Positions 7,266-50,931 of a stretch of 63,126 nucleotides of DNA are shown piece by piece. The first letter of the stretch is position 1. Each line of letters starts with the position of its first letter. Under the pieces are notes generated by a model, which saw only the letters and a list, made by a program, of their open reading frames with translations, was not told where the DNA came from and made no database searches. Location of the stretch: NCBI GenBank assembly GCA_964616495.1, contig CAZTRF010000001.1:3759-66884 (forward strand), read 5' to 3'. Origin of the DNA: an uncultured Muribaculaceae bacterium (lineage in GTDB: Bacteria > Bacillota_I > Bacilli_A > RF39 > UBA660). Both the position numbers and the translations under genes were made by a program.

Positions 7266-7268
7266 TTG

Positions 7269-35579: not shown

Positions 35580-36977
35580 GTGAAAGTAGCATTATTAGGA
35601 ATAAATGATAAAAAACATATTAAAGAACAAATTAAAATATTATCAGCTGCCGGAAGATTATCAAGATTTAAAGGAAATGTTAGTGAAGTATTAGAAATAT
35701 GTAATGATTATGATAAAAATTTAAATTTTATTAAAAGAGTTATTGGAATGGGCCATGAATCTATTACTGATCATGACTATTTAGTTTTTTCAATTATTGA
35801 TGTAACACCAATAATTGAGCAAACAATTATTGAAGAAAGATTATGCTCATTTACAATCAAATCAAGACGGGAAGTAGACTTTAGCAAAGCTGGATTTTAT
35901 ACGCCCATCTTTAGAGATAAATTTGGTAAACCAATAAATAATCAAGATAAATGGAAAATGAAATATCGCAATCATATGAAATATTTATTTAAGAGCTATA
36001 GTAAATTATTAGAAAAAGGTATTAATAAAGAAGATGCCCGATTTATTCTTCCATACTCATATCATAGTAATATTATTATGGGCGTTGATGCTCATATTTT
36101 GAAAAATTTAATTATTAGGTTTACCAAAGGTAAAGAAAGTAGAATAGCAGAATTAAAAGAGTTTGGGGAAAAACTACTTAAAATTGCTACTAAAAGAACC
36201 CCTTATTTAATAGAATTAATCGAAAAGGAAATTCCAAATTATGAGGCAGAAAAATTTATTGATAGTAAAATTAAAGATAAAGATTATAAAATAGTACCAA
36301 ATGTTACACTTTTAAGCTATACTTCTAATGTCGATGAAACTATATTTGTAACCTATTTAATGCAACATTATCAGTATGATTATAAAAAAGCTTTGGAAAT
36401 ATATCATGGTATTTTAAATGAAAATAAAGATATATTAGAAAAGTGGATTAAATTAATAGGCGAGTCTTATGAAAAAGAAGTTTTAACAGCTATTAATTTT
36501 AGATTTCAAATACCTTTATCCTTAGCTGTTTTAACTCATTTATCTCGTCATCGAACACATGATATTATTGTCCCAGATTTTGTTCCAATTCATAATTTAA
36601 TGGCTTATAAAACTCCAGAATCGATTAATAAGAATTGCAAAAATGAATATGATCAAATATATGCTAATAACAATAAAATATATGAAGAATTTAAACAAGC
36701 GGGCATTATGGCTGAAGATTTAATTTATTTTCATTTAAGTGGTAATATGGTGAATGTTTTAACTAATATGAATGGGAAAGATATACATTGGATTCTTCAT
36801 TTAAGAGAATGTACTAAAGCTCAATGGGAAATTAGGAGTGTGGCTCAAAGTATTCATCATGAAATAAGTAAAGTATCAAAATATTTTCCAATGATTTTAG
36901 GACCCACTTGTATAACTAAAGGTTTCTGCCCTGAAGGCAAAGAATCATGTGGTAGAATAAAAAACATTAAAAAGTAG
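35580..36977 (+). CDS. Double-length ThyX-like (flavin-dependent thymidylate synthase family) protein
   Basis: 465 aa. The N-half has GHESITDHDYLVFSI...EERLCSFTIKSRRE, with the ThyX RHR motif degenerated to EER. The C-half has LTHLSRHRTHD, an intact RHR motif. GTG start after a GGAGG RBS. Confidence 0.5.
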   Translation: MKVALLGINDKKHIKEQIKILSAAGRLSRFKGNVSEVLEICNDYDKNLNFIKRVIGMGHESITDHDYLVFSIIDVTPIIEQTIIEERLCSFTIKSRREVDFSKAGFYTPIFRDKFGKPINNQDKWKMKYRNHMKYLFKSYSKLLEKGINKEDARFILPYSYHSNIIMGVDAHILKNLIIRFTKGKESRIAELKEFGEKLLKIATKRTPYLIELIEKEIPNYEAEKFIDSKIKDKDYKIVPNVTLLSYTSNVDETIFVTYLMQHYQYDYKKALEIYHGILNENKDILEKWIKLIGESYEKEVLTAINFRFQIPLSLAVLTHLSRHRTHDIIVPDFVPIHNLMAYKTPESINKNCKNEYDQIYANNNKIYEEFKQAGIMAEDLIYFHLSGNMVNVLTNMNGKDIHWILHLRECTKAQWEIRSVAQSIHHEISKVSKYFPMILGPTCITKGFCPEGKESCGRIKNIKK

Positions 36978-36997: not shown

Positions 36998-37055
36998 TAT
37001 TCTAATTATGATATATTTATATAAGAAAAAATAACCATAAAAAGGAGTGAGTGAT

Positions 37056-38225
37056 ATGAGAAAAATATTACAAAGTATAGGATTATTTTTAATTGCTTTT
37101 ATCATTGCTATTCCTGGAGTTTTGGCTGATAGTATATCAACTTCAATCTCAGGAGCAAGTGAAATCGAAGCTGGAGAGGAGTTTACTTTAACCTTTAAAG
37201 CAACCAGTGGTACTAACATATGGGGACTTACTGCTAAACTCAACTATGATAGCAGTAAACTATCAATAGTATCAAGTAGTGCTGGTAGTGGGTTTAATTT
37301 AACTTTAGGTGCCAATATTGTTATTGATGCTACTAGTGGAGTTAATGCCCCTTTTATTATCTGTACTATTAAATTTAAAGCTTTGACAGGCTTTGTAGCT
37401 AATGAATCAACTACTGTGTCTCTTTCAAATGTTCAAGGCTCAGATGGAAATGTTGATATTAATGGTAGTGGTTCATCTAAAATTATAAAAGTTGTTCCAC
37501 CAAAATCAAGCAATAACTATTTAAGCGGTTTAGCAGTTGATGTTGGGACAATAAAATTTAATAAAGCAACTAATTCTTACACTATAGTAGTTGAAAACGC
37601 TGTAACTACGGCTAACATTACAGCTACTGCTGAAGATGCTACCGCTAAAATAAGTGGAACTGGATCAAAGCAATTAAGCGTATATACCAATACTTTTAGT
37701 ATCGTTGTAACAGCTGAAAATGGAACCAAAAGAACATATAAAATCTATATAAAAAGAAAAGATCAAGATGGAAATACTGCCAAAATAAGTAGTGATAATT
37801 TTTTAAAAGAATTAACTATTACAGGTTACAACATTGACTTTAATAAGGCTACTACTGAATATAGCATAGAAGTAGAAAATGATGTTGAAGTACTAGAAAT
37901 AATAGCTAGTGCTAATGATAGTGGAGCTACTGTTAATGTTATAAAGCCAGATGCTTTAGTTACCGGTGAAAATATTATCACAGTTGAAGTAACTAGTAAA
38001 AGTGGTGAAAAAGCCACTTACACTATTAAAGTAAATAAAAAAGAAAAACAAGTAGATCCGGAACCAATAGTGGATGATAAAAAAGAAGAAGAAAAAGAAA
38101 ACAAAGATACTTCTTTCAGTCATACAAAGTGCTATATATTTATTGGAGTGTTAGGAGTTTTATTTGTTGCATCATTTATATTAAATATCTTATTCTATAA
38201 AAAAATAAAAAATAGAGGTGTTTAA
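37056..38225 (+). CDS. Membrane-anchored cohesin-domain protein with two cadherin-like beta-sandwich (Cadg) modules (mini-scaffoldin/anchor)
   Basis: Signal peptide ...IPGVLA|DS. The cohesin-like module (nt 37128-37502) reads ISGASEIEAGEEFTLTFKA...GLTAKLNYDSSKLSIVS...ICTIKFKA. The two Cadg modules read NNYLSGLAV...YTIVVEN...ITATAEDATAKISG...IVVTAENGTKRTYKIYIKR and NFLKELTI...YSIEVEN...ASANDSGATVNV...VEVTSKSGEKATYTIKVNK. A K/E-rich linker and a C-terminal TM anchor follow. ATG 37056 lies 8 nt after an AAAGGAG. Confidence 0.65.
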   Translation: MRKILQSIGLFLIAFIIAIPGVLADSISTSISGASEIEAGEEFTLTFKATSGTNIWGLTAKLNYDSSKLSIVSSSAGSGFNLTLGANIVIDATSGVNAPFIICTIKFKALTGFVANESTTVSLSNVQGSDGNVDINGSGSSKIIKVVPPKSSNNYLSGLAVDVGTIKFNKATNSYTIVVENAVTTANITATAEDATAKISGTGSKQLSVYTNTFSIVVTAENGTKRTYKIYIKRKDQDGNTAKISSDNFLKELTITGYNIDFNKATTEYSIEVENDVEVLEIIASANDSGATVNVIKPDALVTGENIITVEVTSKSGEKATYTIKVNKKEKQVDPEPIVDDKKEEEKENKDTSFSHTKCYIFIGVLGVLFVASFILNILFYKKIKNRGV

Positions 38226-38228
38226 TAT

Positions 38229-41200
38229 ATGAAAAAAACATTCAAAAAACTAATTAGTTTAATAAGCATTATTTTAATGCTTTTTCCAGAATTATTTCCT
38301 TTTGTAGGAATAATGAAAGTTGATGCTGCTTTATATGAAGGACCAACTGTAATTGAAAATATTGATTTAAACTTTACAGATCATCAATCTCAAGACATTA
38401 CTCTTGGTGAGGGCGAAACATTTTCAAGCTGTTCTTCTGAATCACCTAGAATAGCATCAACTACGATATCAGCTGATAATAAGGTTTGTACTATAACTGC
38501 TTTATCTTACGGAATATCATCTGTTTATTTAAATATATATGCCGGTGGTAGCTATGAGAAAACAATATTTGTTAATGTTGATAACAATACTTTCTTAAAT
38601 AGCTTTTTAGATTCAATTCCTAATGAAATGACAATGACTTATCCCGAATATCAAAAATACATTCAAAATTATAGTCTAAATAGTAATAACCCAAATGATG
38701 TTAACGTTTATTTTGAAGAAAACTCTTTTGAAAATGGAACCTTCATAACTACAGCTGAAGTAACTGATAAAAATTATTACTATTTTAATAATGATGGTCA
38801 GGTTCACTATTACGAAAATGAGGACGATGCCACCATTTCTAAAGAAGTTCGTTTTAATATAATCGGCACGATGCTTTATGGTGACCTAGTTCATGCTTCA
38901 TTATCTTATTTATCAAAGATTGATTTTGTAACAAATACTGAAGTTAATTATGATAATTTAATATTTGTAAGCAGTGATAATAATATCTTTACTGTTGATA
39001 ATAAAGGCTATGTTAAGGGTGTATCTCTCGGCAATGGATATGTTTATGTATATGATAAAGAATCTGATGTGTATTACAAATTAGAGGTAAATGTTCAAGC
39101 TGGTTTTAATAATAATCCTGATTTCTCAGCTATTACTAGTTATTTTAACAATCAAACATTTGATGTTAATATAAGTACTAGTACGATAGCCAAAAAAGCT
39201 ATAAAATATACAGAAGGTGGTACATATACTATTGACCCAGCATCTTATTTTACAGCACTATATAACGAGCATTTTACACCAATATATGGTAGCAATATGC
39301 CTTATTTTAATAGTTTATCTTGTACCAACAATGTTTGCTCAGGTAGCGGTAGTTATTATTATGGCTCATCAGGATCTATCGATATAACAAATGCGACCTT
39401 TAATTTTAATGGAATAAAATTATTAGAAACTTATCTTATAGCTGATCCAAGTTCAAGTTTTGATTTAAACATTATAAAGTTAGGGGCAAGTGCTGATTCA
39501 GAAATCAGCTTTACTTATGATAGCGATTATTTAACTGAAAATGCTAACGGAACATTTTCTGCATTAAAAACGGGAGTTACAGAAGTAACCGCCAGTGATG
39601 GAACTTATCAGAGTACTGCTAAAATGTTTATTTCACCAACATATACTGATATTGCCCCAATTACAAATTATTTTAATAATTTATCGTCTATTACCTTGAC
39701 TTATCCTGTAACAGTTTTTAATGATTTAAATTTTTTATCAAAAGCTGTTAAAAACTATCTTACTGAAAACACACCTGAAAGTAATGGATATAAAAATTTA
39801 TATGAATATGATGTTAAATGCATAAATACTAATATGTGTCAAATCAAAAAGAATGAATATTATGATGCTGAGCATCTATATCCATCAGGTTTTTATTTAT
39901 CTTCTTTCAATTCTAAGATAATTCGCATAAATTATTCATTGGCTGAAGCTACAGAACTTACAGCTGCTGTTAATGAATTAAATAATATTGATAGTAAAAT
40001 TAATATTGCTTTTGAAGATATAGAAAAAGCTTATTATAGCTGTGATGCTTCAGACACTTGTTTTAACGAAAAAATTATAGAGGCAGCAGAATTGCAATTT
40101 AATTCATCAATGTTAAGTTTAAGCGACTTCGTTACAATTGAACAAATACCTGATATTTACTATACTATGGAAGGAAAAGTTCAGCTATCACTATATGGTG
40201 AAGTATTGTATAGCAAGCCAGTAGTAATAACTTATAATAAAATTCATACTCTTTCTCATTTATTAGAAAGAACCGAAGAATATAAAATAAATAATTATAA
40301 AGAAAAAATAGTTGATATGAGTACAACTCTTAATAATTATTCATTAACCACTAATGATATTACCATTACCTTAGTAAGAGATAAAATTTATAATATTGCA
40401 TATCATAATGATAATGAGCATGAAATCACATATAATTTTATGATCGATCAAAAAGAAAAAGTAAAAATAACAGGATTATCATTTGGGTCAAATTTTCCAG
40501 GTAAAAATATGGAAATTGGTGATGAAGAAGTTCTATATTATTCTGTTTATCCGGAAAATGCTAATTATGGTACCGTAGAATTTGTAAGTGCAGATCCAAC
40601 AATTATATCGGTTAATAATACTACTAGAACTATTACTGCTCTAAAAAAAGGTTATACAACTATTTATCCAAAGATAAATGGTAAAGTCCAAAAACATAGT
40701 GGTTATCTATCATGTGTAGATACCACCTATGAAGATATTCTTAATGATATGTTAGAAGCTAATGGCCCAAGTAATGTTACTATAACTTATTATGATTTAC
40801 TAAACTTTGATTTGATAAGTGCCATAACTAATGAAGTAAGTAATCAAATAAATAATAATTTAAATAGGCCGTTAAGTTCAACGGTTGAAGTTGAAGAGAT
40901 TGGAACAACTGGAACATATAAATATCGTTTAGTTTATTCAGAATATATTTACGGATCATCTGAATCCTCTTTTAGTTATTCTCAATATAAAAATATTACC
41001 TATGATAAAAAAGGAATAAGTACTACTGATAACGAATATAAAATAGATATTAATGAAATAGTGGATACTAAATTATCATTTAGTGAAGCTGATAATATAA
41101 ACTTAAATATTAGAATTGAAGATCCAAGTATTGTTTCATATAGTAATAGTGGGATTTTAAAAGGACTTAAAACAGGCAAAACTTATATTTCTATTTATGA

Positions 41201-42875
41201 TAAGTTTGATAAATACTATAATGATATTTATGTTACTGTAGATGGGGATACTCTTTATACAAATATTATTGATGAGTTAAATGATATCGATACAGTCATA
41301 CTTCCTAGCTCAGCAATTGCTAATACGTATGGTTCATATAATCAGATTTTTGATACAGTACTTTTAAGAAAAGTCGATAAATATGATTTATTTAATACCC
41401 ATACTACAATATGCAATAATGTAAATAGTACTTGTACTTTATCACTTAACTATGAATTAAATGGTCAAGAAGAAGAATTTTCAAAAACATATGCTTTTTT
41501 AATACAAGGTTTAACTATAGAAAACAATGACATTGAATTAGCAACTGGAGAGTCATATACATTAGAATATACTTCAATTCCTAATACTGACCCAGTGACT
41601 ATAACCTCTTTAACACCAGAAACTTGTAGTATTGTTGATGATGAGGTATTGGCTTTACAACGAGGAGGATGTTACGTAAAAATTAAAAATAGCACTGATT
41701 TTGATGTTTTAAAAGTAGCCATTGATAAAGATGATATTATTGCCGAATATCAAGATTTACTTGACTCGCTTCCTAATGAAATAACTTTAAAAATAGAAGA
41801 GTATAATGGTGATATAGGTATGGAAGATTATAGTTATATGGCTGCATATTCAATGCTCTTTAAATTAGCTATTGTTGATTTATTAGACTTAAACGAAAGT
41901 GAAATCACCAATTTTTATCCAAGCTTTTTTGATTTAAATGAAGATGATGGAACAATGCCAGTTTCTTTATATCCTAATTTATCATACCATGATGAAATTA
42001 GTGGTGAATATTATGGAGTTAATATTAGTCCAGTTGAAAAAGCGGAACCAATAAAAATATTATACGATAATGATTTTATTGCTGATCAAGAAGAGGTTGA
42101 TGCTATAGTTGCCACTTTGCCTAAAGAATATCGTCTAAGTATTGATCAAATAATTAAATATCGTCTATTGGGTGGACAGATGATTGATTATACAGACTTT
42201 TCTAATATCTTAGATGCTTATCCCGATTATGAATTACAATATGATATGGCCGGAGCTGGTGGAAGTATGGCTATGGTAGGGCAAAATTATGCTTATACTG
42301 TTTTAAAAGATGGATATGTAGTGGCTTTTGGAAGTGTTGATGTTTATATGTATTTTGAAGATGAAAACACCACGGTTATGACACAAGAAGAATACATTGA
42401 ATATTTAAAAGGCCTTGTTACTGATGAATATATTTCTGTTCAAAATGAAATATCAAATTTAACAACTTTAGCTGTTAGAATGGATATTAGCGAGCCAACT
42501 GAATTATTAGAAGATTCAATATATGGCTTAGGAGATACAACCCCGGAAGTTACTGTTACTTATATTAGAAACAGTGCTGACCCAACAGTTGATACTTACG
42601 ATATTCGAGTTGAAGATATTGCCTTTAGATTAACGGTTGGTAAAAAAATAGCTCAAGGAGCAACTTATGATGCTAGTTATCTAATAGGAGATTTAACTGG
42701 AGATAATGTTATTTCAACAACCGACTTGGTCAAACTAAGAAGACATTTAGCGGGAATTGAATCAGTTACTGGTAATAAACTAAAAGCCGCTGATATTAAT
42801 CGTGATAATAATGTTACAACAACTGACTTGGTCAAACTAAGAAGACACTTAGCGGGAATTGAATCAATAGCTTAA
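38229..42875 (+). CDS. 1548-aa secreted multi-domain protein with Big_2 Ig-like domains and a C-terminal type-I-like dockerin
   Basis: It has an N-terminal signal/anchor. Big_2-like segments include VEFVSADPTIISVNNTTRTITALKKGYTTIY and FVSSDNNIFTVDNKGYVKGVSLGNGYVYV. The C-terminus GDLTGDNVISTTDLVKLRRHLAGIE...ADINRDNNVTTTDLVKLRRHLAGIE forms the two Ca-binding F-hand repeats of a dockerin. Confidence 0.7.
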   Translation: MKKTFKKLISLISIILMLFPELFPFVGIMKVDAALYEGPTVIENIDLNFTDHQSQDITLGEGETFSSCSSESPRIASTTISADNKVCTITALSYGISSVYLNIYAGGSYEKTIFVNVDNNTFLNSFLDSIPNEMTMTYPEYQKYIQNYSLNSNNPNDVNVYFEENSFENGTFITTAEVTDKNYYYFNNDGQVHYYENEDDATISKEVRFNIIGTMLYGDLVHASLSYLSKIDFVTNTEVNYDNLIFVSSDNNIFTVDNKGYVKGVSLGNGYVYVYDKESDVYYKLEVNVQAGFNNNPDFSAITSYFNNQTFDVNISTSTIAKKAIKYTEGGTYTIDPASYFTALYNEHFTPIYGSNMPYFNSLSCTNNVCSGSGSYYYGSSGSIDITNATFNFNGIKLLETYLIADPSSSFDLNIIKLGASADSEISFTYDSDYLTENANGTFSALKTGVTEVTASDGTYQSTAKMFISPTYTDIAPITNYFNNLSSITLTYPVTVFNDLNFLSKAVKNYLTENTPESNGYKNLYEYDVKCINTNMCQIKKNEYYDAEHLYPSGFYLSSFNSKIIRINYSLAEATELTAAVNELNNIDSKINIAFEDIEKAYYSCDASDTCFNEKIIEAAELQFNSSMLSLSDFVTIEQIPDIYYTMEGKVQLSLYGEVLYSKPVVITYNKIHTLSHLLERTEEYKINNYKEKIVDMSTTLNNYSLTTNDITITLVRDKIYNIAYHNDNEHEITYNFMIDQKEKVKITGLSFGSNFPGKNMEIGDEEVLYYSVYPENANYGTVEFVSADPTIISVNNTTRTITALKKGYTTIYPKINGKVQKHSGYLSCVDTTYEDILNDMLEANGPSNVTITYYDLLNFDLISAITNEVSNQINNNLNRPLSSTVEVEEIGTTGTYKYRLVYSEYIYGSSESSFSYSQYKNITYDKKGISTTDNEYKIDINEIVDTKLSFSEADNINLNIRIEDPSIVSYSNSGILKGLKTGKTYISIYDKFDKYYNDIYVTVDGDTLYTNIIDELNDIDTVILPSSAIANTYGSYNQIFDTVLLRKVDKYDLFNTHTTICNNVNSTCTLSLNYELNGQEEEFSKTYAFLIQGLTIENNDIELATGESYTLEYTSIPNTDPVTITSLTPETCSIVDDEVLALQRGGCYVKIKNSTDFDVLKVAIDKDDIIAEYQDLLDSLPNEITLKIEEYNGDIGMEDYSYMAAYSMLFKLAIVDLLDLNESEITNFYPSFFDLNEDDGTMPVSLYPNLSYHDEISGEYYGVNISPVEKAEPIKILYDNDFIADQEEVDAIVATLPKEYRLSIDQIIKYRLLGGQMIDYTDFSNILDAYPDYELQYDMAGAGGSMAMVGQNYAYTVLKDGYVVAFGSVDVYMYFEDENTTVMTQEEYIEYLKGLVTDEYISVQNEISNLTTLAVRMDISEPTELLEDSIYGLGDTTPEVTVTYIRNSADPTVDTYDIRVEDIAFRLTVGKKIAQGATYDASYLIGDLTGDNVISTTDLVKLRRHLAGIESVTGNKLKAADINRDNNVTTTDLVKLRRHLAGIESIA
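42687..42872 (+). other. Dockerin module (two F-hand repeats)
   Basis: See above. The two repeats share a block of about 50 nt that is nearly identical at nucleotide level (about 42718-42768 and 42823-42873). Confidence 0.7.
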
Positions 42876-42902
42876 AAGAGTGGGGAAGCCCATTCTTTTT
42901 TA
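42876..42902 (+). terminator. Rho-independent terminator
   Basis: AAGAGTGGG/CCCATTCTT stem (one G-U pair), loop GAAG, followed by T6. Confidence 0.75.
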
Positions 42903-42926: not shown

Positions 42927-42955
42927 TAGACAAAACGCCCATTAAAGCCTATAAT
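42927..42955 (+). promoter_or_regulatory. Promoter of the hydrolase-queA-amidoligase-ATP-grasp operon
   Basis: TAGACA (42927-42932), 17-nt spacer, TATAAT (42950-42955). Confidence 0.55.
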
Positions 42956-42980
42956 ACACTTACGAGAGGAGAAGAGTATT

Positions 42981-43667
42981 ATGGTTTCAAAAGAACATCT
43001 AAAAGAATTAGAAAGTACTTTTAGTCAAAATGAAAAACATGGTAATCTTTTAGTACCTAGTCATAATTTTACTAAAGGGCTTGGAAATATTATATTGACT
43101 GCTCCCCATACCGTTATTACAAGCAAAATTAAAAATGGAATTGAAACTATAAAAGAAAATGAATCTTATACTGGGGCTATTACTTTAATGTGTGGTGAAA
43201 TTGCTGGATGTCATACCATGACCCGTAACAATTATAATGATGTTACTGCTATCACTAATTTTTATAATGAATATTTACAAGATTATATTTCTTCTTATGG
43301 AATAGTTGGTCATTTAGATATTCATGGTGCTGCCAGGACTAATCCTTATGATGTATCAATAGGTACTAATCATCTTGAACATATTTTTTACGATCAACAG
43401 GTTTACGAAATTGTTAATGATGGATTTAATGATTATGGAATTAATAATGTGGTTTGGAATTCTAAATTTCAAGCCTCTACTAAAGCAACTTTATGTCGTC
43501 AGGTATTCTTAGGTAAAATGATTCATACTCTTCAACTAGAGATAAATAAAAATTATCGCGATTTAAATGATTTTGAGAAAATGGTAGCTCTTATTAAGGC
43601 CATTTCTGAAATAGCTATAAATTTAAATGAGCATTTATCTTCCGGTGGTTTAGGATATGGCAGATAA
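42981..43667 (+). CDS. Metal-dependent amidohydrolase-like protein (N-formylglutamate amidohydrolase / PghP poly-glutamate hydrolase-like fold, tentative)
   Basis: The conserved pattern APH...ENESYTG...HLDIHGA...GTNH...LQLEINKNYR (H, E, H, E candidate ligands) is shared with the C-terminal domain of the next gene. The family assignment is from memory only. Confidence 0.4.
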   Translation: MVSKEHLKELESTFSQNEKHGNLLVPSHNFTKGLGNIILTAPHTVITSKIKNGIETIKENESYTGAITLMCGEIAGCHTMTRNNYNDVTAITNFYNEYLQDYISSYGIVGHLDIHGAARTNPYDVSIGTNHLEHIFYDQQVYEIVNDGFNDYGINNVVWNSKFQASTKATLCRQVFLGKMIHTLQLEINKNYRDLNDFEKMVALIKAISEIAINLNEHLSSGGLGYGR

Positions 43668-45330
43668 TAGTTTATTAAATATTAATACCTATGATTATCC
43701 ATTAGACAAAAACTTGATTGCTCAAACGCCTATAAAAAATCGCGATCAATCAAAATTAATGGTTGTCAATCGTAAAAATGGTGATATTTCTCACCATATT
43801 TTTTCTGATATTATAAATTACTTAAATAAGGGCGATTGCCTAGTACTAAATGATACTAAAGTAATACCCGCCAGACTATTTGGAGTAAAAGAAGCAACAA
43901 AAGCTCATATTGAAATACTTTTATTAAAAGATAATGGTAATAACTTATGGGATTGCCTTATTAGAAATTCCAGAAGATTAAAACAAGAAGATATTATTTC
44001 TTTTGGTGAAGGATTATTAAAAGGGAAAGTCATTTCTAAGGCCTCTGATGGGGTAATAAAACTTCAATTAATATATGATGGCATTTTATATGAAATACTT
44101 GATAAACTAGGAGAAATGCCCTTACCGCCATATATTCATAAACATTTAAAAGAACAAGATCGTTATCAAACGGTATATGCTAAAAATATTGGTAGTGCTG
44201 CAGCTCCTACTGCCGGATTACATTTTACAAAAAAATTACTTGACGATATTGAAAAAAAAGGTATAATAATTTGCTACGTCACATTGCATGTTGGTTTAGG
44301 TACTTTTAGACCAGTTGAAGAAGATAATATTTTAAATCACCATATGCATAGTGAATATTATGAAATGACTTCGGATGTGGCAAAATTATTAAATGATGCT
44401 AAAGAAAGTCATCATAAAATTATTGCTGTAGGAACAACCTCTACTAGAGTATTAGAAACCGTCTATAGTAAATATAATTCCTTTAAAGAATCTTTTGGAA
44501 ATACCGATATTTTTATCTATCCGGGATATACCTTTAAAGCAATTGATTCTTTAATTACTAATTTTCATTTGCCAAAATCAACTTTAATGATGCTAGTAAG
44601 TGCTTTTAGTAGTAAAGATATTATTATGAATGCTTATAGAGAAGCTATGAATAAAAAATATCGTTTCTTTTCATTTGGTGATGCCATGCTTTTGGATATT
44701 CCTAATTATGAAAAATTGTTAGACGAGTTTAAAAATCAAAAGATTTATTTAAAAAAAGATAATTTTAAAATTTTAAAAGGAACCATTCCTATAATGATAT
44801 CAGTTCCTCATAGTAAAAAGCATTTACGAGATGGAATGGTTAAAAATAATGAACATAATACAGCTAGAATTGCTAAACTATTATATTGTTTAACTAATTG
44901 TCATTTAATCTATGCCTATAAACAGGGAGATAATGACCATAACTATGATGAAAGTTCTAATTATAAAAAAAAGTTAAAAGCCTATATAAAAGAAAATAAC
45001 ATTAAGATATTAATAGATATTCATGGTATGGCTGATTCTTATGACATCGAGTTAGGAACTAACCATTATCAAAATATTTTTAATGATAAAGATATTATAA
45101 ATAATATTAAAGATATATTTTATAAAAATAATATAAAGAATGTATTTGTCGACCGAAAATTTAAAGCTAAAAGACATAATACTATTAGCAATTACATAAA
45201 TAAAGAATGTAATATTAAAACTATTCAACTAGAAATAGGCCCTAAGTATCGTAAAATCAAATTAAGACCAAAATCATTTAATAAAATTATAATAAGTTTA
45301 GAAGAAATCATAAATAAGAATAAGGAGTGA
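43657..45330 (+). CDS. queA: S-adenosylmethionine:tRNA ribosyltransferase-isomerase QueA fused to a C-terminal amidohydrolase-like domain
   Basis: Residues 1 to about 347 are canonical QueA (LIAQTPIKNRDQSKLMVV, LVLNDTKVIPARLFG, PLPPYI, AAPTAGLHFT, GTTS.RVLE, NFHLPKSTL, RFFSFGDAMLL). Residues from about 365 to 557 repeat the pattern of 42981-43667 (VPH...NNEHNTA...LIDIHGM...GTNH...IQLEIGPKYR). Confidence 0.85.
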   Translation: MADNSLLNINTYDYPLDKNLIAQTPIKNRDQSKLMVVNRKNGDISHHIFSDIINYLNKGDCLVLNDTKVIPARLFGVKEATKAHIEILLLKDNGNNLWDCLIRNSRRLKQEDIISFGEGLLKGKVISKASDGVIKLQLIYDGILYEILDKLGEMPLPPYIHKHLKEQDRYQTVYAKNIGSAAAPTAGLHFTKKLLDDIEKKGIIICYVTLHVGLGTFRPVEEDNILNHHMHSEYYEMTSDVAKLLNDAKESHHKIIAVGTTSTRVLETVYSKYNSFKESFGNTDIFIYPGYTFKAIDSLITNFHLPKSTLMMLVSAFSSKDIIMNAYREAMNKKYRFFSFGDAMLLDIPNYEKLLDEFKNQKIYLKKDNFKILKGTIPIMISVPHSKKHLRDGMVKNNEHNTARIAKLLYCLTNCHLIYAYKQGDNDHNYDESSNYKKKLKAYIKENNIKILIDIHGMADSYDIELGTNHYQNIFNDKDIINNIKDIFYKNNIKNVFVDRKFKAKRHNTISNYINKECNIKTIQLEIGPKYRKIKLRPKSFNKIIISLEEIINKNKE

Positions 45331-45336
45331 TTTATT

Positions 45337-46194
45337 ATGGAAGAAGAAATTAATTATCGTGAAAGATTTGACACCCTTTTAAATATTCAACCCAATTATG
45401 GAATAGATCATGTTAAAAAACCAGTCAAATTTAATTATATTGGATTAGAAATTGAAATTGCAGTTATCTATGATCGTAGTCGTTATACCTTCATTAGGAC
45501 TTTAATTAAACAGGTCATTAAATTAGTTGGCAATAATGGCTATTTTACTAGTGATGGAACAATTATAGGAGATTATTCTTTTGAAATAGTAATGAAACCA
45601 ATGAGTGTTCCAAAAATAGTTAAGTTTTATCGAACCCTCAAAAAAATAATTAAATTTAGTGATGGATCCCTTGCTTTTGATAAGGAACATAATTGTGGTC
45701 TTCATATGAATTTTAATCAATATGATGTTCCTAATATTGAAGAGGCTCATAAAAGGTTATTACTATTATGTAATGAAAAACCTGAGTATTTTGATGAAAA
45801 CGTTTATAAAAGAACCATTTATAACTTTACATTTAAAGATTATGTGGAGTTCCAAAAGACCGTTGCCAACAAGTATATTGGCATTAACTATTTAAATAAG
45901 AAAATAGTTGAAATAAGAAATATAAAAGTTAGTTTATCATCTTCTAAATTAGAAGAAATAATGAAAGACTTATTATATTGTTTGTTTGAAGAAAAATTAC
46001 CATCTCATAAAGAAAAAATGAAAGTTCGTAAACTAAAACATGTCGTTAATGCAGCCTTTGCTAAAGAAAATAATAAAAGTTTAAATGAAGGATTAGATGA
46101 AGGATATATCTTAATAAAATTTGATAAAACCATTCCTAAAGTAATTGAAATTACCGACGAAGTGAAATCTGTTTTAGATGAGGTTACAAAATGA
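45337..46194 (+). CDS. Amidoligase-family (glutamine-synthetase-fold COOH-NH2 ligase, PF12224-like) protein, tentative
   Basis: YIGLEIEIAV...FTSDGTIIGDYSFEIVMKPM...CGLHMNFN matches the remembered GxExE ... DxS ... E.v..P ... GlHvH pattern of that family. Confidence 0.5.
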   Translation: MEEEINYRERFDTLLNIQPNYGIDHVKKPVKFNYIGLEIEIAVIYDRSRYTFIRTLIKQVIKLVGNNGYFTSDGTIIGDYSFEIVMKPMSVPKIVKFYRTLKKIIKFSDGSLAFDKEHNCGLHMNFNQYDVPNIEEAHKRLLLLCNEKPEYFDENVYKRTIYNFTFKDYVEFQKTVANKYIGINYLNKKIVEIRNIKVSLSSSKLEEIMKDLLYCLFEEKLPSHKEKMKVRKLKHVVNAAFAKENNKSLNEGLDEGYILIKFDKTIPKVIEITDEVKSVLDEVTK

Positions 46195-47090
46195 AAAGAA
46201 TAGATGCATGGCTATTTTTTGCTAATGTTTCATATAAGGAAAAAGAAAAAAATGGTTATATTAAAGAAATAATTAAAAAGGCTCAAAAAGAATATGATTT
46301 TAATTTAGAGGTTAAAAATGTTCAAAAGTTTCACATTGTTTCCGGTGAAAAAAACGAACTTTATTATGATGGAAAGCTAGTGAAACAATTACCTACATAT
46401 GCCATTATTAGAAGGTATGAAATTTATTTAATGAGACAATTAGAACTAATGGGAGTTCAAGTATTTAATAGTGTTTCAGCAATGATTGATGCTCGTAATA
46501 AGATGAAAGTTCATCAAATATTAGCTTCTAATCATATAAATACTCCTAAAACCGTTTACACAGTATTTAAAAGTAATTGTGATAATGTTCTATATAAAGA
46601 TATTACAAAAATATTAGGTAGTAAAAAATTTATTTTAAAATGGATATATGGTTCTCAAGGAAAACATGTTTATCTAGTACAAAATGAAGCAGCATTTAAT
46701 GAATTAGTCAAAAAATATAAAGGCAGAATTCTTTGTCAAGAATTTATTGAAGAAAGTTTTGGAATGGATATTAGAGCTTATGTCATTAATAGTAAATTTA
46801 TTGGTGCAGCCATTAGAAAAAGTAATGGTGATAACTTCAAAAGTAATCTAGCTCAAGGAGGAGAAGCTCTTCCAGTAGAATATAATGATGAAATAATTAA
46901 TATTGCTGAAAAAAGTGCTAAAGCAGTTGGACTTGATATTTGTGGCGTCGATATTTTAGTATCTAAAAAAGGTTATTATATCTGTGAAGTAAACGCTTTA
47001 CCAGGTTTCAAATCAATAAAAAAGGTATGCGACATTGATGAAAAAGATATTCTTTTAGGCCTTATCAAAAATAAAATAGATAATAAATAA
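46191..47090 (+). CDS. RimK-family ATP-grasp ligase (alpha-L-glutamate ligase-like)
   Basis: ARNKMKVHQILASNHINTPKT, ILKWIYGSQGKHVYLV, LCQEFIEESFGMDIRAYVI, FKSNLAQGGEA and GLDICGVDIL...YICEVNALPGF. The start overlaps the upstream stop (ATGA). Confidence 0.85.
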   Translation: MKRIDAWLFFANVSYKEKEKNGYIKEIIKKAQKEYDFNLEVKNVQKFHIVSGEKNELYYDGKLVKQLPTYAIIRRYEIYLMRQLELMGVQVFNSVSAMIDARNKMKVHQILASNHINTPKTVYTVFKSNCDNVLYKDITKILGSKKFILKWIYGSQGKHVYLVQNEAAFNELVKKYKGRILCQEFIEESFGMDIRAYVINSKFIGAAIRKSNGDNFKSNLAQGGEALPVEYNDEIINIAEKSAKAVGLDICGVDILVSKKGYYICEVNALPGFKSIKKVCDIDEKDILLGLIKNKIDNK

Positions 47091-47092
47091 TG

Positions 47093-47121
47093 TTGAAATA
47101 TTCTAACTCCTATCTTATAAT
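47093..47121 (+). promoter_or_regulatory. Promoter for the second glycine-rich protein gene, interleaved with the upstream terminator
   Basis: TTGAAA (47093-47098), 17-nt spacer, TATAAT (47116-47121). The -10 box sits in the loop of the 47105-47141 hairpin. Confidence 0.55.
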
Positions 47122-47145
47122 AAACCTATAGGATAGGAGTTTTTG
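47105..47145 (+). terminator. Rho-independent terminator of the queA operon
   Basis: AACTCCTATC (47105-47114) pairs with GATAGGAGTT (47132-47141), followed by TTTTG. The 3' arm contains the AGGAG RBS of the next gene. Confidence 0.65.
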
Positions 47146-47146
47146 T

Positions 47147-49759
47147 ATGTGGAAAGAACTTTCTAAAAAAACTAAAATGATCATTATTGGAATATTGTCT
47201 ATTACCATTCTTTTAGTAGTGGGAATAACCTATGCCTATTTTACAGCAGCCACCGTAGGAGGAAACGCCAGTGCCAATTCAATCCAATTACTAACTGGTA
47301 CTCACGGAAATATAACTGTTAATTATCTTAATGGGAATGGCCTTATTAATATGAATAATGTTGATTTAAAAGAAAATGAAAAAGGAACCATAAAAAAAGA
47401 AATGGTTAAGTTTAGTGTAAATTATCCCGGCAGTGAAGAAGAAAATATATCAATTAATTGGAAAGAAGTAACTAATAACTTTTGTCAATATCAACTGGGA
47501 AATATATGTACTAATAACGATGAAGACAACTATGTTGGAGATGAAATATATTTTGATTTATATGAGTGCAATACTCAAAGTGATTTACAAAATGCCACTA
47601 CAACTATTTTGAATAATTGTACAAATATAACCAATGAAAATAATAGTGCGCCTTTAACCGGGGAAGAAAAACAATTACAAAATGTAGAAGTTATCCCAAT
47701 AATTAATGAAGTTAAATATTATATAATGATTTTAAATATTAATAATCTAAATGTTTTGCAAGACTATAATCAAGGAAAAGCCTTTCAAGGAAGAATTGAA
47801 GTTGTCCTTCGTAATGAGTTTGTTTTAACTTTAAACTTAAATGGAGGGGTTAGTGAAGATTTATTAACTCAAAACATTCGAACTGGTGAAACCATTATTC
47901 TTACCGAGCCAACTAAAGAAGATTATACTTTTATCGAATGGAAAGTAAATGTAGGAGGAACCGATGCTTTATTATCAGGAAATACTTTTACTATGGGTAA
48001 AGAAAATACAACCTTAAAAGCAATTTTTGCAAAAACCATCACTGAATTTTCAGCTAATAACTTAATTACTTATGAAGAATTTAATCCAGAAGCAGATGGT
48101 TATTATAAAGTAGAACTATGGGGTGCAAAAGGTGGAAATTCTAATTATACTGGCGGAGCTGGAGCTTATGTTAGTGGTAGCATTGAAATGAAAGAGGGAG
48201 AAACCTACTATATTTATATTGGGGGTTTAGGTAACCTCACAAGTACCGGTGGATATAATGGTGGAGGAAGAGGGCAAAGCAAGAATCCATCTGGAATGAG
48301 TGGTGGTGGTGGTGGAGCCACTGACATCAGGTACTTTGGTAACATAACCCCTTCGGCAGAGGAATTATTATGGAATTCTTCTTTAGGACTTAACTCTAGG
48401 ATTATGGTTGCTGGTGGCGGAGGTGGCGGTGGAAATAACGGTGACGGAATAAGTGGCAATGGTGGAGCTGGTGGAAATACAATTGGTGGAAGCGGAACTT
48501 CATCAGGTTCTGACTGTTGTGGAAATTCTGCAAATGCTAGTTATAATGGAAAAGGTGGTTCCCAAATTGCTGGGGGTAGTGGCGGTATGGCAGCTGGCAG
48601 TTTTGGTGTTGGAGCAATTGATTCTAATGTCAAAGGCGGTTCTGGTGGCGGTGGCTACTATGGAGGAGGCAGCGGATATTATGGCGGTGGCGGTGGCGGT
48701 GGTAGCTCATATATAAGTGGCTCTTTAGGAAGTATAGCTATTACTGCATCTGACAATCGTACCGCTAAGTGTAGTGCTGAAGTTGCTGCATCAGATTTAA
48801 CTTGCTCTTTCCACTATAGTGAAAAAGCATTTTACTTAACCACTATGAATCAAGGAACGAATTCAGAAGCGGGAAAGGCAAAGATAACTTATGTAGGAAA
48901 ACAATTAAATGTTCCAAGTTATAATATTAGTACTACCACAACTTCCAGTAGTCCTTTAATTATCGATTACATGAATACTTATCAAGAAATAAACGTCTTG
49001 TCTTCAGGATATTATAAAATAGAATTATGGGGAGCAAGTGGAGCAACATATAGCACAAGCTGGGCGCCTTCTGGAAAAGGTGGCTATACGCAAGGCACAA
49101 TATACATGGAGCAGGGAGAAAAATACTACGCTTTTGTTGGAAGCGAAGGACTAAGAAGAAATACCATTAATGGTGGTTATAATGGGGGTGGCGAGGCCTT
49201 AAGTAACTATGCTGCTGGTGGTGGTGGAGCCACTGATATTAGGTACTTTAGTACAACACCGTCTATTGAACAATTACAATGGAATTCCCCTTTAGGATTA
49301 AATAATCGTATTATGGTAGCTGGTGGTGGCGGTGCTGGTGGCTATAATGGAGATAATAAATATGGTACTGGTGGGGCTGGTGGAGGATTAACCGGTGGTA
49401 CAGGAACTATTGGAATTTTAAATTCGACCTATTGGGTTGTAGAAGCAGATTCTTCTAGCAATTGGACAAGAGGTACCGGAGGAACACAAAATGCTGGAGG
49501 AACCAATTATCCAGTAGGAGGCTTTGGTGTTCCAGGAACTCCAGGAGGAACAACATATTCTGGGGCTGGTGGTGGTTATTATACTGGTGGTGGCGGTTAT
49601 TATGGTGGTGGTGCTGGTGGCGGATCTTCATATATTAGTGGCCATTCAGGATGCACAACCCATTTAAATGGCAAAACTTTTGCTTCTACTGAAACTACTT
49701 CAGGAGTAAAATCTGGGAATGGTCAAGCCAAAATAACATATATTGGAAATAGTCTTTAA
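47147..49759 (+). CDS. 870-aa secreted protein: SipW/TasA-type signal + TasA-like N-domain + Flg_new repeat + two tandem ALK/LTK-type glycine-rich (PF12810-like) domains
   Basis: Signal ...LLVVGITYAYFTAA. Flg_new repeat LTLNLNGGV...PTKEDYTFIEWK. The first Gly-rich copy (about 48035-48905) reads YYKVELWGAKGG...GGAGAYVSG...GETYYIYIGG...GGYNGGGRG...GGGGGATDIRYF...RIMVAGGGGGGG...KAKITYVG. The second copy (about 48950-49756) reads YYKIELWGASG...GGYNGGGEA...GGGGATDIRYF...RIMVAGGGGAGG...QAKITYIG. Confidence 0.8.
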   Translation: MWKELSKKTKMIIIGILSITILLVVGITYAYFTAATVGGNASANSIQLLTGTHGNITVNYLNGNGLINMNNVDLKENEKGTIKKEMVKFSVNYPGSEEENISINWKEVTNNFCQYQLGNICTNNDEDNYVGDEIYFDLYECNTQSDLQNATTTILNNCTNITNENNSAPLTGEEKQLQNVEVIPIINEVKYYIMILNINNLNVLQDYNQGKAFQGRIEVVLRNEFVLTLNLNGGVSEDLLTQNIRTGETIILTEPTKEDYTFIEWKVNVGGTDALLSGNTFTMGKENTTLKAIFAKTITEFSANNLITYEEFNPEADGYYKVELWGAKGGNSNYTGGAGAYVSGSIEMKEGETYYIYIGGLGNLTSTGGYNGGGRGQSKNPSGMSGGGGGATDIRYFGNITPSAEELLWNSSLGLNSRIMVAGGGGGGGNNGDGISGNGGAGGNTIGGSGTSSGSDCCGNSANASYNGKGGSQIAGGSGGMAAGSFGVGAIDSNVKGGSGGGGYYGGGSGYYGGGGGGGSSYISGSLGSIAITASDNRTAKCSAEVAASDLTCSFHYSEKAFYLTTMNQGTNSEAGKAKITYVGKQLNVPSYNISTTTTSSSPLIIDYMNTYQEINVLSSGYYKIELWGASGATYSTSWAPSGKGGYTQGTIYMEQGEKYYAFVGSEGLRRNTINGGYNGGGEALSNYAAGGGGATDIRYFSTTPSIEQLQWNSPLGLNNRIMVAGGGGAGGYNGDNKYGTGGAGGGLTGGTGTIGILNSTYWVVEADSSSNWTRGTGGTQNAGGTNYPVGGFGVPGTPGGTTYSGAGGGYYTGGGGYYGGGAGGGSSYISGHSGCTTHLNGKTFASTETTSGVKSGNGQAKITYIGNSL

Positions 49760-50931
<1,172 letters not shown>

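Follow-up and report, generated by a model that had tools for sequence, protein, structure and literature searches.

The window analysed in this study (the whole stretch of DNA, 63,126 nucleotides in length) contains four co-directional, translationally coupled open reading frames (ORF1–ORF4) flanked by two strong terminators; this unit and the genes that follow it as far as tgt lie on the forward strand. All four ORFs were found where an earlier, sequence-only reading had placed them, and their junctions read as it had described: an 11-nt overlap of ORF1 and ORF2 (positions 43657–43667), a 6-nt gap between the ORF2 stop codon (45328–45330) and the ATG of ORF3 (45337), and an ATGA overlap of ORF3 and ORF4 (46191–46194). 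An AGGAG ribosome-binding site precedes the ORF1 ATG at position 42981, and the AGGAG ahead of ORF3 overlaps the 3' end of ORF2. The site proposed as the promoter, TAGACA-17-TATAAT (42927–42955), is indeed the best match of the region (11/12), but such sites are no commoner there than in shuffled sequences (53 versus 46 ± 6) and its role as a promoter is therefore plausible but not proven. The strong closing terminator of the same reading was recovered as an intrinsic terminator at 47105–47141, where a T-run comes after a stem of 15 bp (-20.5 kcal/mol, z = -6.1). On its 5' side the unit is bounded by the intrinsic terminator of the upstream surface-protein gene (42874–42900), which has an 11-bp stem and then a U-run (-14.5 kcal/mol and z = -3.8 versus shuffles); this feature is absent from the earlier reading. 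With a terminator on either side, the four genes thus constitute an isolated transcription unit in this genome.

ORF2 (43657–45330) encodes a full-length QueA fused to a second domain, referred to as HYD, which agrees with the QueA-hydrolase fusion claimed before. Its residues 1–346 (43657–44694) correspond to tRNA preQ1(34) S-adenosylmethionine ribosyltransferase-isomerase, and the assignment passed Pfam and NCBIfam equivalog HMMs (PF02547, 447.5 bits; NF001140, 468.4 with a cutoff of 324; TIGR00113, 427.2 with a cutoff of 267). Residues 347–557 (44695–45330) form the HYD domain, a putative Zn amidohydrolase of the FGase/PghP fold. Its AF2 model (pLDDT 92) gave 2odf (FGase family), PghP (3a9l/21dc), M14-like carboxypeptidases and succinylglutamate desuccinylase as top Foldseek matches, and the HYD family profile picks up PF05013-annotated proteins at about 1e-30; scored directly against PF05013, the domain reaches 19.3 bits and so falls short of the cutoff of 28.9. 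Judged by the structure model and the profile search, HYD domains belong to the FGase/PghP fold group and not to an unrelated family, so that the hydrolase calls of the earlier reading had the fold right, with no HMM match at a curated threshold. The invariant residues of the family (domain numbering) are H39, K50, D108, H110, Q178, E180 and R186. All of them are retained in ORF1 (HYD1; 42981–43667), a free-standing, accessory paralogue of 228 aa, which has no Pfam or NCBIfam match in HMM searches and shares 29% identity (E 2e-19) with the domain at the C-terminus of ORF2. Its counterpart is a protein of 311–316 aa in three relatives (L001, L003 and L021) and has shrunk to an 82-aa remnant in the two closest ones (L005 and L017); ORF1 is a lineage-specific extra copy of HYD.

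ORF3 (45337–46194; 285 aa), referred to as GSL, is predicted to be a glutamine-synthetase-fold carboxylate-amine ligase. HMM searches gave no direct Pfam or NCBIfam match for it, and the top Foldseek matches of its AF2 model (pLDDT 85.6) were YbdK/GCS2 (1tt4, 1r8g) and glutamine synthetases, with a probability of 1.0. The weak tail of the GSL profile search consists of PF12224 members scoring above their own cutoff, with which GSL has the catalytic motifs GxExE, CGxH and ExR in common. The structure model and these profile matches indicate that GSL is a divergent sister of Pfam Amidoligase_2, forming a family of its own that is very small, with 58 representatives in a set of 1.84 billion proteins; the GS-fold amidoligase named in the sequence-only reading was correct at this level, again with no match at a curated HMM threshold. 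ORF4 (46191–47090; 299 aa) was confirmed by HMMs as a RimK-family ATP-grasp alpha-L-glutamate ligase (TIGR00768, 180.8 bits with a cutoff of 143.4; PF08443, 134 bits). A further match is to PF02955, the ATP-grasp domain of glutathione synthetase (E 3.8e-11), and the nearest solved structures of ORF4 are RimK proteins, i.e. S6-glutamate ligases (about 100 bits). ORF4 lies below the cutoff of every characterised equivalog, namely RimK-S6 (125.5 bits, cutoff 331), MptN, LysX and CofF. HYD, GSL and RimK are basic proteins (pI 8.8–9.5), which was counted as weak support for the function proposed below.

The distribution of these genes was surveyed in 35 species-level genomes carrying GSL, whose hosts, represented by metagenome genomes from gut or rumen with 27% GC, form a clade of uncultured low-GC Bacilli. 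GSL adjoins queA and/or tgt in 27 of the 35, usually in the order queA-HYD-GSL-(RimK)-tgt, so the association does recur in other genomes. Among the 27 linked loci, tgt adjoins the cassette in 25, and HYD is fused to the C-terminus of QueA in 17 and to the N-terminus of GSL in 8. The architectures comprise QueA~HYD (n = 17), QueA followed by HYD~GSL (n = 5), QueA-GSL-HYD~inactive-GSL (n = 2; in L029 and L030 an active GSL is paired with a catalytically degenerate one fused to HYD) and all genes separate (n = 1). What lies upstream varies (a thioredoxin gene or ruvAB), but the cassette always sits between queA and tgt, and the linkage holds down to 37–41% GSL identity; altogether it is kept in 27 species across >60% sequence divergence and at least two different upstream contexts, with all catalytic motifs retained. 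Of the four genes regarded earlier as a unit, HYD and GSL are conserved and make up the core; ORF1 is confined to its lineage and RimK is missing from two lineages. The cassette of HYD, GSL and a RimK-family ligase is co-inherited with queA and tgt in this clade. Its functional tie to the queuosine pathway is well supported by genomic context, more so than the sequence-only reading could show, given the QueA~HYD fusion in 17 species and the location between queA and tgt. In the remaining 8 of the 35 species, HYD-GSL lies away from queA/tgt with no RimK nearby (standalone HYD~GSL adjoins ffh in 4 of 7 loci), and the pair can therefore act where it is not linked locally to queA/tgt, and its role may then be outside the queuosine pathway.

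Comparison of gene orders indicates how the cassette arrived. In this window, thyX and two genes for surface proteins stand between ruvA (34002–34556) and ruvB (34565–35569) on one side and queA on the other, and an 870-aa glycine-rich surface-protein gene (47147–49759; ALK/LTK glycine-rich domain PF12810 and Listeria-Bacteroides repeats), which lies outside the system, parts the cassette from tgt (49804–50931; queuine tRNA-ribosyltransferase, PF01702, 519 bits) in this genome only. The ruvA-ruvB-queA-tgt order is thus broken on both sides of queA, as had been noticed. Cassette-bearing relatives have the order ruvA-ruvB-[HYD]-queA~HYD-GSL-RimK-tgt, with tgt starting 1–140 nt past the end of the RimK gene (the longest gap being that of L017). 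Close cassette-less relatives show plain ruvA-ruvB-queA-tgt with the same downstream genes, and where the flanking synteny is the same, tgt follows queA directly or after one unrelated gene; in L053 a gene encoding a CmpB-like transporter is inserted at the same place. The plain order in these relatives shows that the cassette was inserted into the queA-tgt operon, the reverse of the earlier view that queA was recruited into a self-contained operon; the breaks in this window are secondary and stem from later insertions of surface-protein genes. The Tgt pocket retains the residues equivalent to C158 and V233 of the Z. mobilis enzyme, and relatives lacking the cassette have the same GGTSVGE as this window; being unchanged with or without the cassette, these residues give no sign of an adaptation of Tgt to a bulkier base.

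Several known systems resemble parts of the cassette. GluQRS (YadB) also attaches glutamate, in an ATP-dependent step, to a base of the queuosine family in position 34 of tRNA, as is proposed for the cassette; however, it is a paralogue of the catalytic domain of class I glutamyl-tRNA synthetase that forms an ester on the diol of finished queuosine, it is not encoded between queA and tgt, it has no dedicated hydrolase, and in HMM searches it was unrelated to any cassette protein. PF05013 N-formylglutamate amidohydrolase and PghP, which cleave amide bonds next to glutamate, have the fold of the putative HYD amidohydrolase, with H, H and E at comparable positions, but HYD scores below the direct Pfam cutoff and is fused to QueA or to the ligase. 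Amidoligase_2 and amidoligase-peptidase gene neighbourhoods were reportedly described by Iyer, Abhiman, Burroughs and Aravind in 2009. The latter likewise combine a GS-fold COOH-NH2 ligase with an ATP-grasp ligase and a peptidase; the PF12224 model, however, misses GSL, and no paper linking queuosine to such enzymes, nor one describing the embedding in a queuosine operon or the QueA fusion, was found in the searchable literature. In the Puu putrescine pathway and in butirosin synthesis (BtrJ/BtrG), glutamate is placed on an amine by an ATP-dependent ligase and later taken off again by a hydrolase dedicated to this step, and PafA/Dop act as a ligase-hydrolase pair. The substrates there are polyamines, carrier-bound intermediates or proteins, and we know of no link of any of these systems to tRNA or 7-deazaguanine. 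Glutamylation of S6 by RimK/RimABK involves a ligase of the ORF4 family, and in Pseudomonas the modification is trimmed or regulated by proteins that partner RimK (PMC4741518, PMC11957791); those partners are RimA and RimB, whereas here a GS-fold ligase and an FGase-fold hydrolase occur in a queA-tgt context. Nature also derivatises the 7-substituent of deazaguanines in nucleic acids, as in fdPreQ1 and mdPreQ1 of phage DNA, which include N-acylated preQ1 (PMC10516641). These phage and archaeal systems employ the formyltransferase DpdN, the methyltransferase DpdM or ArcS, on DNA or on archaeal tRNA position 15, and are not known to involve an ATP-dependent amidoligase or a hydrolase. Archaeal ArcS/RaSEA, for its part, proceeds through a preQ0-lysine intermediate at that tRNA position.

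We tentatively propose, with a probability of roughly 0.35, that the cassette performs a reversible glutamyl capping of the aminomethyl amine of preQ1, the cap being removed by HYD next to QueA. Ligases of the GS fold join an amine to a glutamate-type carboxylate that they have activated, enzymes of the RimK family attach L-Glu to a carboxylate already in place, be it glutamyl or another, and the bonds cut by FGase and PghP are N-acyl-glutamate and gamma-glutamyl amides. The target would be the 7-aminomethyl group of preQ1, the only primary amine handled by both Tgt and QueA, most likely with preQ1 already at tRNA position 34. GSL would acylate this amine using ATP, probably via the gamma-carboxylate of glutamate, RimK, where present, would add further glutamate to the free alpha-carboxylate of the capping one, and HYD, tethered to QueA or GSL, would hydrolyse the cap, after which QueA would ribosylate the freed amine to yield epoxyqueuosine. 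N-acylated preQ1 is natural, since N-formyl-preQ1 occurs in phage DNA (PMC10516641). Against glutamyl capping stand the eight species with HYD~GSL away from queA/tgt, the same Tgt pocket with or without the cassette, the direct Pfam scores of HYD and GSL below curated cutoffs, and the presence on a single polypeptide of both the enzyme that makes a bond and the one that cuts it, which would resemble a futile cycle unless regulated. Moreover, the surroundings of the cassette at the loci compared have neither a recurrent preQ1 riboswitch nor any further recurrent gene for queuosine synthesis or transport.

It is doubtful that the cassette instead supplies preQ1 to Tgt and QueA in organisms with reduced genomes by salvage, HYD releasing it from an N-acylated form (formyl-, glutamyl- or peptidyl-preQ1) imported from the gut environment and the ligases handling the liberated acid or storing the base again. 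N-formylglutamate amidohydrolase is the nearest family of HYD, N-formyl-preQ1 exists in phage DNA, the hosts are low-GC (27%) gut or rumen genomes, and queC/D/E/F genes are absent from the window and from the surroundings of all cassettes; a free-base step, however, would more naturally be fused to Tgt or a transporter than to QueA, and the co-conservation of two ATP-dependent ligases would be left without explanation. Just as doubtful is a modification of proteins, in which GSL and RimK would tag QueA, Tgt, a ribosomal protein or another translation factor with glutamate or a peptide and HYD would remove the tag, a scheme akin to the action of RimK on S6 or to PafA/Dop pupylation. The S6-glutamate ligases that are the closest solved relatives of ORF4, the membership of the protein ligase PafA in the GS-fold ligase superfamily, the active and degenerate GSL of L029/L030, reminiscent of ligase/hydrolase paralogue pairs, and ffh beside standalone HYD~GSL fit this, but ORF4 falls far below the RimK-S6 cutoff, a conserved glutamate at the C-terminus is seen in none of the cassette proteins, the cassette loci have no conserved gene for a small acidic carrier or tag, and the QueA fusion and queA-tgt position would be unexplained unless QueA or Tgt were the target.

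We regard as improbable the synthesis of a small molecule, i.e. a gamma-glutamyl di- or tripeptide built by GSL and the ATP-grasp enzyme in the two-step logic of GshA/GshB and trimmed by HYD, whether unrelated to queuosine or serving its chemistry (e.g. by dealing with the epoxyqueuosine epoxide in the absence of QueG/QueH). In its favour are the top structural match of GSL, which is to the gamma-glutamyl-cysteine ligases of the YbdK/GCS2 family, the PF02955 match of ORF4 and the 8 genomes with HYD~GSL away from queA; it gives no rationale for the hydrolase-QueA fusion, RimK is dispensable in two lineages, and epoxide reduction requires electrons that the cassette enzymes do not supply. Quite improbable, too, is a decoration of finished queuosine or epoxyqueuosine by a non-orthologous GluQRS analogue placing glutamate on the cyclopentene-diol, with RimK extending it and HYD as eraser. 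Glutamate is central to all three families of the cassette, esters are among the products of ATP-grasp enzymes (D-Ala-D-Lac ligases, graspetide ligases), and glutamyl-queuosine is a known bacterial derivative (PMC10690763); nevertheless, GS-fold and RimK-type ligases normally use amine nucleophiles, these bases offer only a hindered secondary amine and hydroxyls, and it is hard to see why an eraser would be fused to an enzyme whose step precedes the decoration. Very improbable, finally, is a cassette that is a mere passenger in a well-expressed operon with neutral fusions. The same place accepts other insertions (surface-protein genes and thyX here, the CmpB-like transporter gene in L053) and the GSL tree does not cleanly separate queA-linked from unlinked forms, but fusions to two different partners and a fixed order across 27 species, >60% divergence and at least two upstream contexts, with all catalytic motifs kept, argue against it.

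If the glutamyl capping of preQ1 is true, the glutamyl-preQ1 nucleoside would be a reversible checkpoint or a protected intermediate before queuosine formation. That enzymes which make and cut amide bonds, one of them often fused to QueA, lie between queA and tgt as a conserved set not described before suggests an unrecognised further step, or a new derivative, in queuosine synthesis.

The unit under study consists of four open reading frames, all pointing in the same direction: ORF1 (42981-43667, 228 aa), a free copy of a predicted FGase/PghP-fold hydrolase (HYD), ORF2 (43657-45330, 557 aa), in which QueA (residues 1-346) is fused to a second HYD copy (QueA~HYD, the "~" denoting fusion), ORF3 (45337-46194, 285 aa), a predicted glutamine-synthetase-fold carboxylate-amine ligase (GSL), and ORF4 (46191-47090, 299 aa), a RimK-family ligase. 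The set of HYD, GSL and (where present) RimK, which sits between queA and tgt, is called here the cassette. The frames, the unit that they form and their junctions (an 11-nt overlap, a 6-nt gap and an ATGA overlap) had been described in the sequence-only reading, and re-reading of the sequence confirmed them; an AGGAG motif lies inside the 3' end of ORF2, ahead of the 6-nt gap to ORF3. Two strong intrinsic terminators bound the unit, i.e. that of the upstream gene (42874-42900, -14.5 kcal/mol, z = -3.8) and that of the cassette (47105-47141, -20.5 kcal/mol, z = -6.1). The sequence at 42927-42955 is a plausible promoter (an 11/12 match, the best in the region), in AT-rich DNA in which promoter-like sites are not enriched compared with shuffled sequences (53 vs 46 +/- 6). 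Another promoter-like site, TTGAAA-17-TATAAT (11/12), was found at 47093-47121, where it shares bases with the 5' arm of the terminator that closes the cassette and shortly precedes an inserted surface-protein gene. At 26.6% GC the cluster matches the window as a whole (27.4%). Nothing points to a recent foreign origin. None of the four proteins was matched by the PADLOC defence-system models. Searches with Rfam families found no preQ1 riboswitch in the window; the sole family detected there was the ribosomal protein L21 leader (RF00559, 2658-2727, 40.7 bits).

The QueA part of ORF2 is full-length (PF02547, 447.5 bits, profile positions 2-322 of 322) and scores above the NCBIfam equivalog cutoffs of NF001140 and TIGR00113 (468.4 bits vs 324 and 427.2 vs 267, respectively). 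It is predicted to carry out the SAM-dependent conversion of preQ1-tRNA to epoxyqueuosine-tRNA, and its genomic position, ruvA-ruvB-...-queA-...-tgt, is typical in the window and in its relatives. ORF4 contains an ATP-grasp domain (PF08443, 134.1 bits vs 21) and passes the RimK-family subfamily model TIGR00768 (180.8 bits vs a cutoff of 143.4), while remaining under the equivalog cutoffs of MptN (142.8 vs 350 bits), LysX (115.8 vs 275.6) and CofF (86.8 vs 300).

ORF1 is a paralogue of the last 211 residues of ORF2 (29% identity, E 2e-19). ORF1 gave no usable Pfam, NCBIfam or PADLOC match, and the HYD domain of ORF2 reached 19.3 bits against the FGase profile PF05013, under its gathering cutoff of 28.9, ORF1 showing no match to it; a profile built from the HYD family retrieved many proteins of 212-240 aa with precomputed PF05013 assignments at about 1e-30. 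The AlphaFold2 model of HYD (pLDDT 92) had as its top Foldseek match the FGase-family structure 2odf (TMq 0.58-0.60), followed by PghP (3a9l, 21dc), M14-like carboxypeptidases and succinylglutamate desuccinylase (TMq 0.5-0.6). The likeness to PghP is structural only (E 3e-5 to 5e-5, TM about 0.5, no Pfam match), and when the HYD alignment was used for a sequence-profile search of the PDB, nothing but noise came back. Residues H39, K50, D108, H110, Q178, E180 and R186 (domain numbering) are invariant, also in ORF1; among them H39, H110 and E180, with an acidic residue near position 53, are candidates in the alignment for the His/Glu/His metal site and catalytic Glu of FGase/PghP Zn hydrolases. 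Profile and fold comparisons together indicate that HYD is homologous to the FGase family and has the same fold, as a divergent sister and not a member by the curated threshold. PNP structures were also present among the Foldseek matches, with lower TM scores, and a nucleoside phosphorylase/hydrolase was rejected in favour of an amidohydrolase because H/H/E residues are conserved in HYD and its homologues carry PF05013. Phage homologues of HYD were limited to one weak match, and the neighbourhoods of free-standing FGase-like homologues offered no informative context. Some metagenomic HYD homologues of about 377 aa (P0216-P0221) are fused to a bacterial SH3_3 domain, which hints that the wider family includes hydrolases directed at the cell wall or at poly-glutamate.

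ORF3 had no Pfam or NCBIfam match, and the Amidoligase_2 profile PF12224 remained silent even at E up to 10. Its AlphaFold2 model (pLDDT 85.6) was matched by Foldseek to YbdK/GCS2 (E 4e-6) and to many glutamine synthetases, with probability 1.0 and a TM of about 0.43 over a partial alignment, and in this model GSL has a GS-like catalytic fold. An exhaustive profile search of 1.84 billion representatives yielded just 58 relatives, of which the weakest matches (E 1e-6 to 1e-3) clear the PF12224 cutoff. Aligned with Amidoligase_2 proteins, ORF3 shares the motifs GxExE, CGxH and ExR, and within the GSL family E38, E40, H123, E192 and R194 are invariant; GSL is accordingly placed, on profile search and alignment, as a divergent sister of Amidoligase_2 and outside the family by the curated threshold. 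No phage homologues of GSL were found. Distant GSL paralogues of about 290 aa are encoded between ftsZ and ftsK in other genomes (L049, 1430-2329 and L051, 6001-6870); their ExE, H and R motifs are partly lost, so that they are probably non-catalytic, and since they are degenerate they are not counter-examples to the linkage described below. A further degenerate form is a 432-aa protein (L008, 7878-9176, likewise in loci L029 and L030), in which HYD is fused to a second GSL-like domain whose motifs read GMKINL (for GLEIEI) and SSLTLRF (for CGLHMNF). The gene adjoins an intact GSL gene and an unfused queA, and the degenerate copy resembles a substrate-binding module, derived from a ligase, that would serve the hydrolase.

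The GTDB collection (one genome per species) was scanned with the GSL alignment, and the resulting 35 loci were classified by tblastn and reading-frame continuity. These are: (i) QueA~HYD, GSL, RimK and Tgt (17 loci), (ii) QueA followed by an HYD~GSL fusion, (RimK) and Tgt (5 loci), (iii) QueA, GSL, HYD~catalytically degenerate GSL copy, RimK and Tgt (2 loci), (iv) separate genes for QueA, HYD, GSL, RimK and Tgt (1 locus), (v) truncated or variant cassettes (2 loci) and (vi) HYD~GSL, once as two adjacent genes, located elsewhere with no queA, RimK gene or tgt within 7 kb (8 loci). RimK was present in 25 of the 27 cassette loci, being truly absent from L037 and L044, and Tgt likewise in 25. The order, the two loci of class (iii) apart, is always QueA-HYD-GSL, and the fusion partner of HYD is whichever neighbour adjoins it; a 734-aa HYD-GSL'-GSL protein also exists. 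Upstream of the cassette ruvA-ruvB is found in some lineages and a thioredoxin gene in others, while the site itself is always queA-tgt, and the catalytic motifs of the cassette enzymes remain intact across more than 60% sequence divergence. Comparison of these loci shows that QueA and Tgt are inherited together with a predicted hydrolase and one or two predicted ATP-dependent carboxylate-amine ligases, with physical fusion to QueA. No other queuosine gene or transporter recurs near the cassette, and around the standalone HYD~GSL genes only ffh, a DUF2207-like protein and a small uncharacterised protein recur (4 of 7 loci), which is uninformative. A rough neighbour-joining tree did not separate queA-linked from unlinked GSL forms, and the linkage is thus either ancestral and later lost or gained more than once. 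The hosts, GCA_964493665.1, GCA_030154545.1 and GCA_964396655.1 among them, come from metagenomes of gut and rumen and are described only as uncultured Bacilli of low GC content.

The cassette is missing from two close relatives, whose QueA is about 70% identical and whose flanking synteny is the same: one has tgt directly after queA, and the other has one unrelated gene between the two. The cassette was thus inserted into a queA-tgt operon; queA was not, as the sequence-only reading had proposed, recruited into a self-contained operon. Its four-gene core also has to be given up, as RimK is missing from two loci and ORF1, whose counterpart has 311-316 aa in a sister clade and is reduced to a remnant of 82 aa in the nearest relatives of the window, is an accessory duplicate. 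What stood were its four fold and family calls (QueA and RimK by HMM, HYD and GSL by structure prediction and profile searches), the conservation of the association (27 of the 35 loci) and, as a probable interpretation, the functional tie to queuosine. Its amide writer/eraser chemistry stays a hypothesis.

In the window, ruvAB was later split from the cassette by thyX and two surface-protein genes, and tgt by an 870-aa glycine-rich surface-protein gene. The latter (47147-49759), inserted between cassette and tgt, and the gene at 30682-32529 encode large predicted surface proteins with Listeria-Bacteroides repeats and glycine-rich domains (PF12810, ALK/LTK glycine-rich, 246 bits in two stretches, and PF21722); a related 956-aa protein is encoded near ruvA in the related locus L003. 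Between thyX and the cassette are inserted genes for a cadherin-like 392-aa protein (37047-38225) and a 1548-aa Big_2 protein with a C-terminal type I dockerin (38229-42875), a domain unexpected for a small low-GC Bacilli genome. ThyX itself (35580-36977, 465 aa) is about twice the usual length and has two Thy1 stretches, suggesting a tandem-duplicated flavin-dependent thymidylate synthase; the long form is kept in L005 and L017 (473 aa). In the cassette-less relative L053 the queA-tgt gap holds a gene (7124-7756) for a 210-aa PF06541 CmpB-like putative ABC transporter. It seems that this gap repeatedly accepts insertions; alternatively, the gene may be a candidate transporter of a queuosine precursor.

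Co-variation of the Tgt pocket with the cassette was rejected as a general signal, because the window (tgt, 49804-50931) and the cassette-less relatives alike have the motif GGTSVGE, with the counterparts of Z. mobilis C158 and V233 retained. In Z. mobilis the pocket motif, G229-E235, is GGLAVGE, and the residue at V233 defines preQ1 specificity. In some cassette species (L001/L003/L019/L021, L022, L024 and L028) the pocket reads GGANSGE, GGVANGE or GGVANNE and the V233 equivalent is Ser or Asn, the cassette-less relatives in this comparison being from other lineages.

A real functional tie of the cassette to the queuosine pathway is given a probability of about 0.65. GS-fold ligases activate a glutamate-type carboxylate and then add an amine, RimK-family enzymes attach L-glutamate to an existing carboxylate, and FGase and PghP cut N-acyl-glutamate or gamma-glutamyl amides. 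Tgt inserts preQ1 and QueA ribosylates its amine, the 7-aminomethyl group being the sole primary amine handled by both flanking enzymes. As three glutamate-centred amide chemistries need an amine and this one is the only shared candidate, we propose a capping model, in which GSL would cap the 7-aminomethyl amine of preQ1, probably with a gamma-linked Glu, RimK would lengthen the glutamyl cap and HYD would strip it immediately before QueA acts. The attachment of HYD to QueA, to an active GSL or to an inactive one fits this model, in which the modules are expected to bind the same substrate. N-formyl-preQ1 occurs naturally in phage DNA (PMC10516641), which fits as well, since this nitrogen is acylated in nature. 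The basic character of HYD, GSL and RimK (pI 8.8-9.5) is weakly consistent with RNA substrates. This particular division of labour is nevertheless offered as a tentative possibility. A bolder reading, considered rather unlikely, is that a glutamyl or oligo-glutamyl amide is put on and taken off the preQ1 aminomethyl nitrogen at tRNA position 34 by the cassette; the product would be a previously unknown natural tRNA nucleoside, and the system the first reversible, ATP-driven checkpoint of the queuosine pathway, with the eraser physically coupled to QueA.

Several points speak against the capping model: in eight genomes HYD~GSL is not located near queA, a chain that carries both ligase and hydrolase would run a futile cycle unless regulated, the Tgt pocket is not adapted, and the cassette is not accompanied by a riboswitch, a transporter or any other queuosine gene. 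Five other explanations were weighed and are kept as less likely alternatives; each accounts less well for the fusion to QueA and the fixed position. This holds for the cassette merely hitch-hiking at the site, for a salvage route that would deacylate N-acylated preQ1, and for the synthesis of gamma-glutamyl peptides by a logic like that of GshA/GshB. It holds also for glutamylation of a protein, of the RimK-S6 or PafA/Dop type; here the nearest solved relatives of ORF4 are RimK proteins (~100 bits), and its score against the S6--L-glutamate ligase equivalog (NF007764) is 125.5 bits, under the cutoff of 331. It holds, finally, for a GluQ-like decoration of finished queuosine or epoxyqueuosine. 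To our knowledge GluQ is the only amino-acid decoration of bacterial queuosine; it is made by a synthetase paralogue unrelated to the cassette enzymes, and HMM searches found no glutamyl-tRNA-synthetase-like catalytic domain (GluQRS type) in any of the four proteins.

The superfamilies to which the cassette components belong are known, and so is the theme of gene neighbourhoods that combine amidoligases with peptidases. In full-text searches no paper turned up that links queuosine or 7-deazaguanine to RimK or to ligases of the ATP-grasp, amidoligase or GS-like kind; the apparently undescribed features are the composition, the location within queA-tgt and the fusion to QueA. We rate the system as a pathway of tRNA hypermodification to which an amidoligase/hydrolase module has been added. 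A conserved fusion of QueA to amide-bond enzymes would surprise a specialist in tRNA modification. Queuosine synthesis in bacteria is considered to be completely mapped, from GTP to preQ1 and then through Tgt, QueA and QueG or QueH. Conserved ligases and a hydrolase between queA and tgt, often fused to QueA, imply something extra in these bacteria: perhaps an additional step or a protected intermediate, perhaps a regulatory switch or a new derivative of 7-deazaguanine. The hosts of the cassette are gut bacteria, the group that also supplies the host with queuine (PMC4425180). The cassette would bring GS-fold and ATP-grasp amidoligase chemistry into tRNA modification, and would place two orphan branches, a tiny one in the Amidoligase_2 superfamily and one in the FGase family, in a biological setting for the first time.
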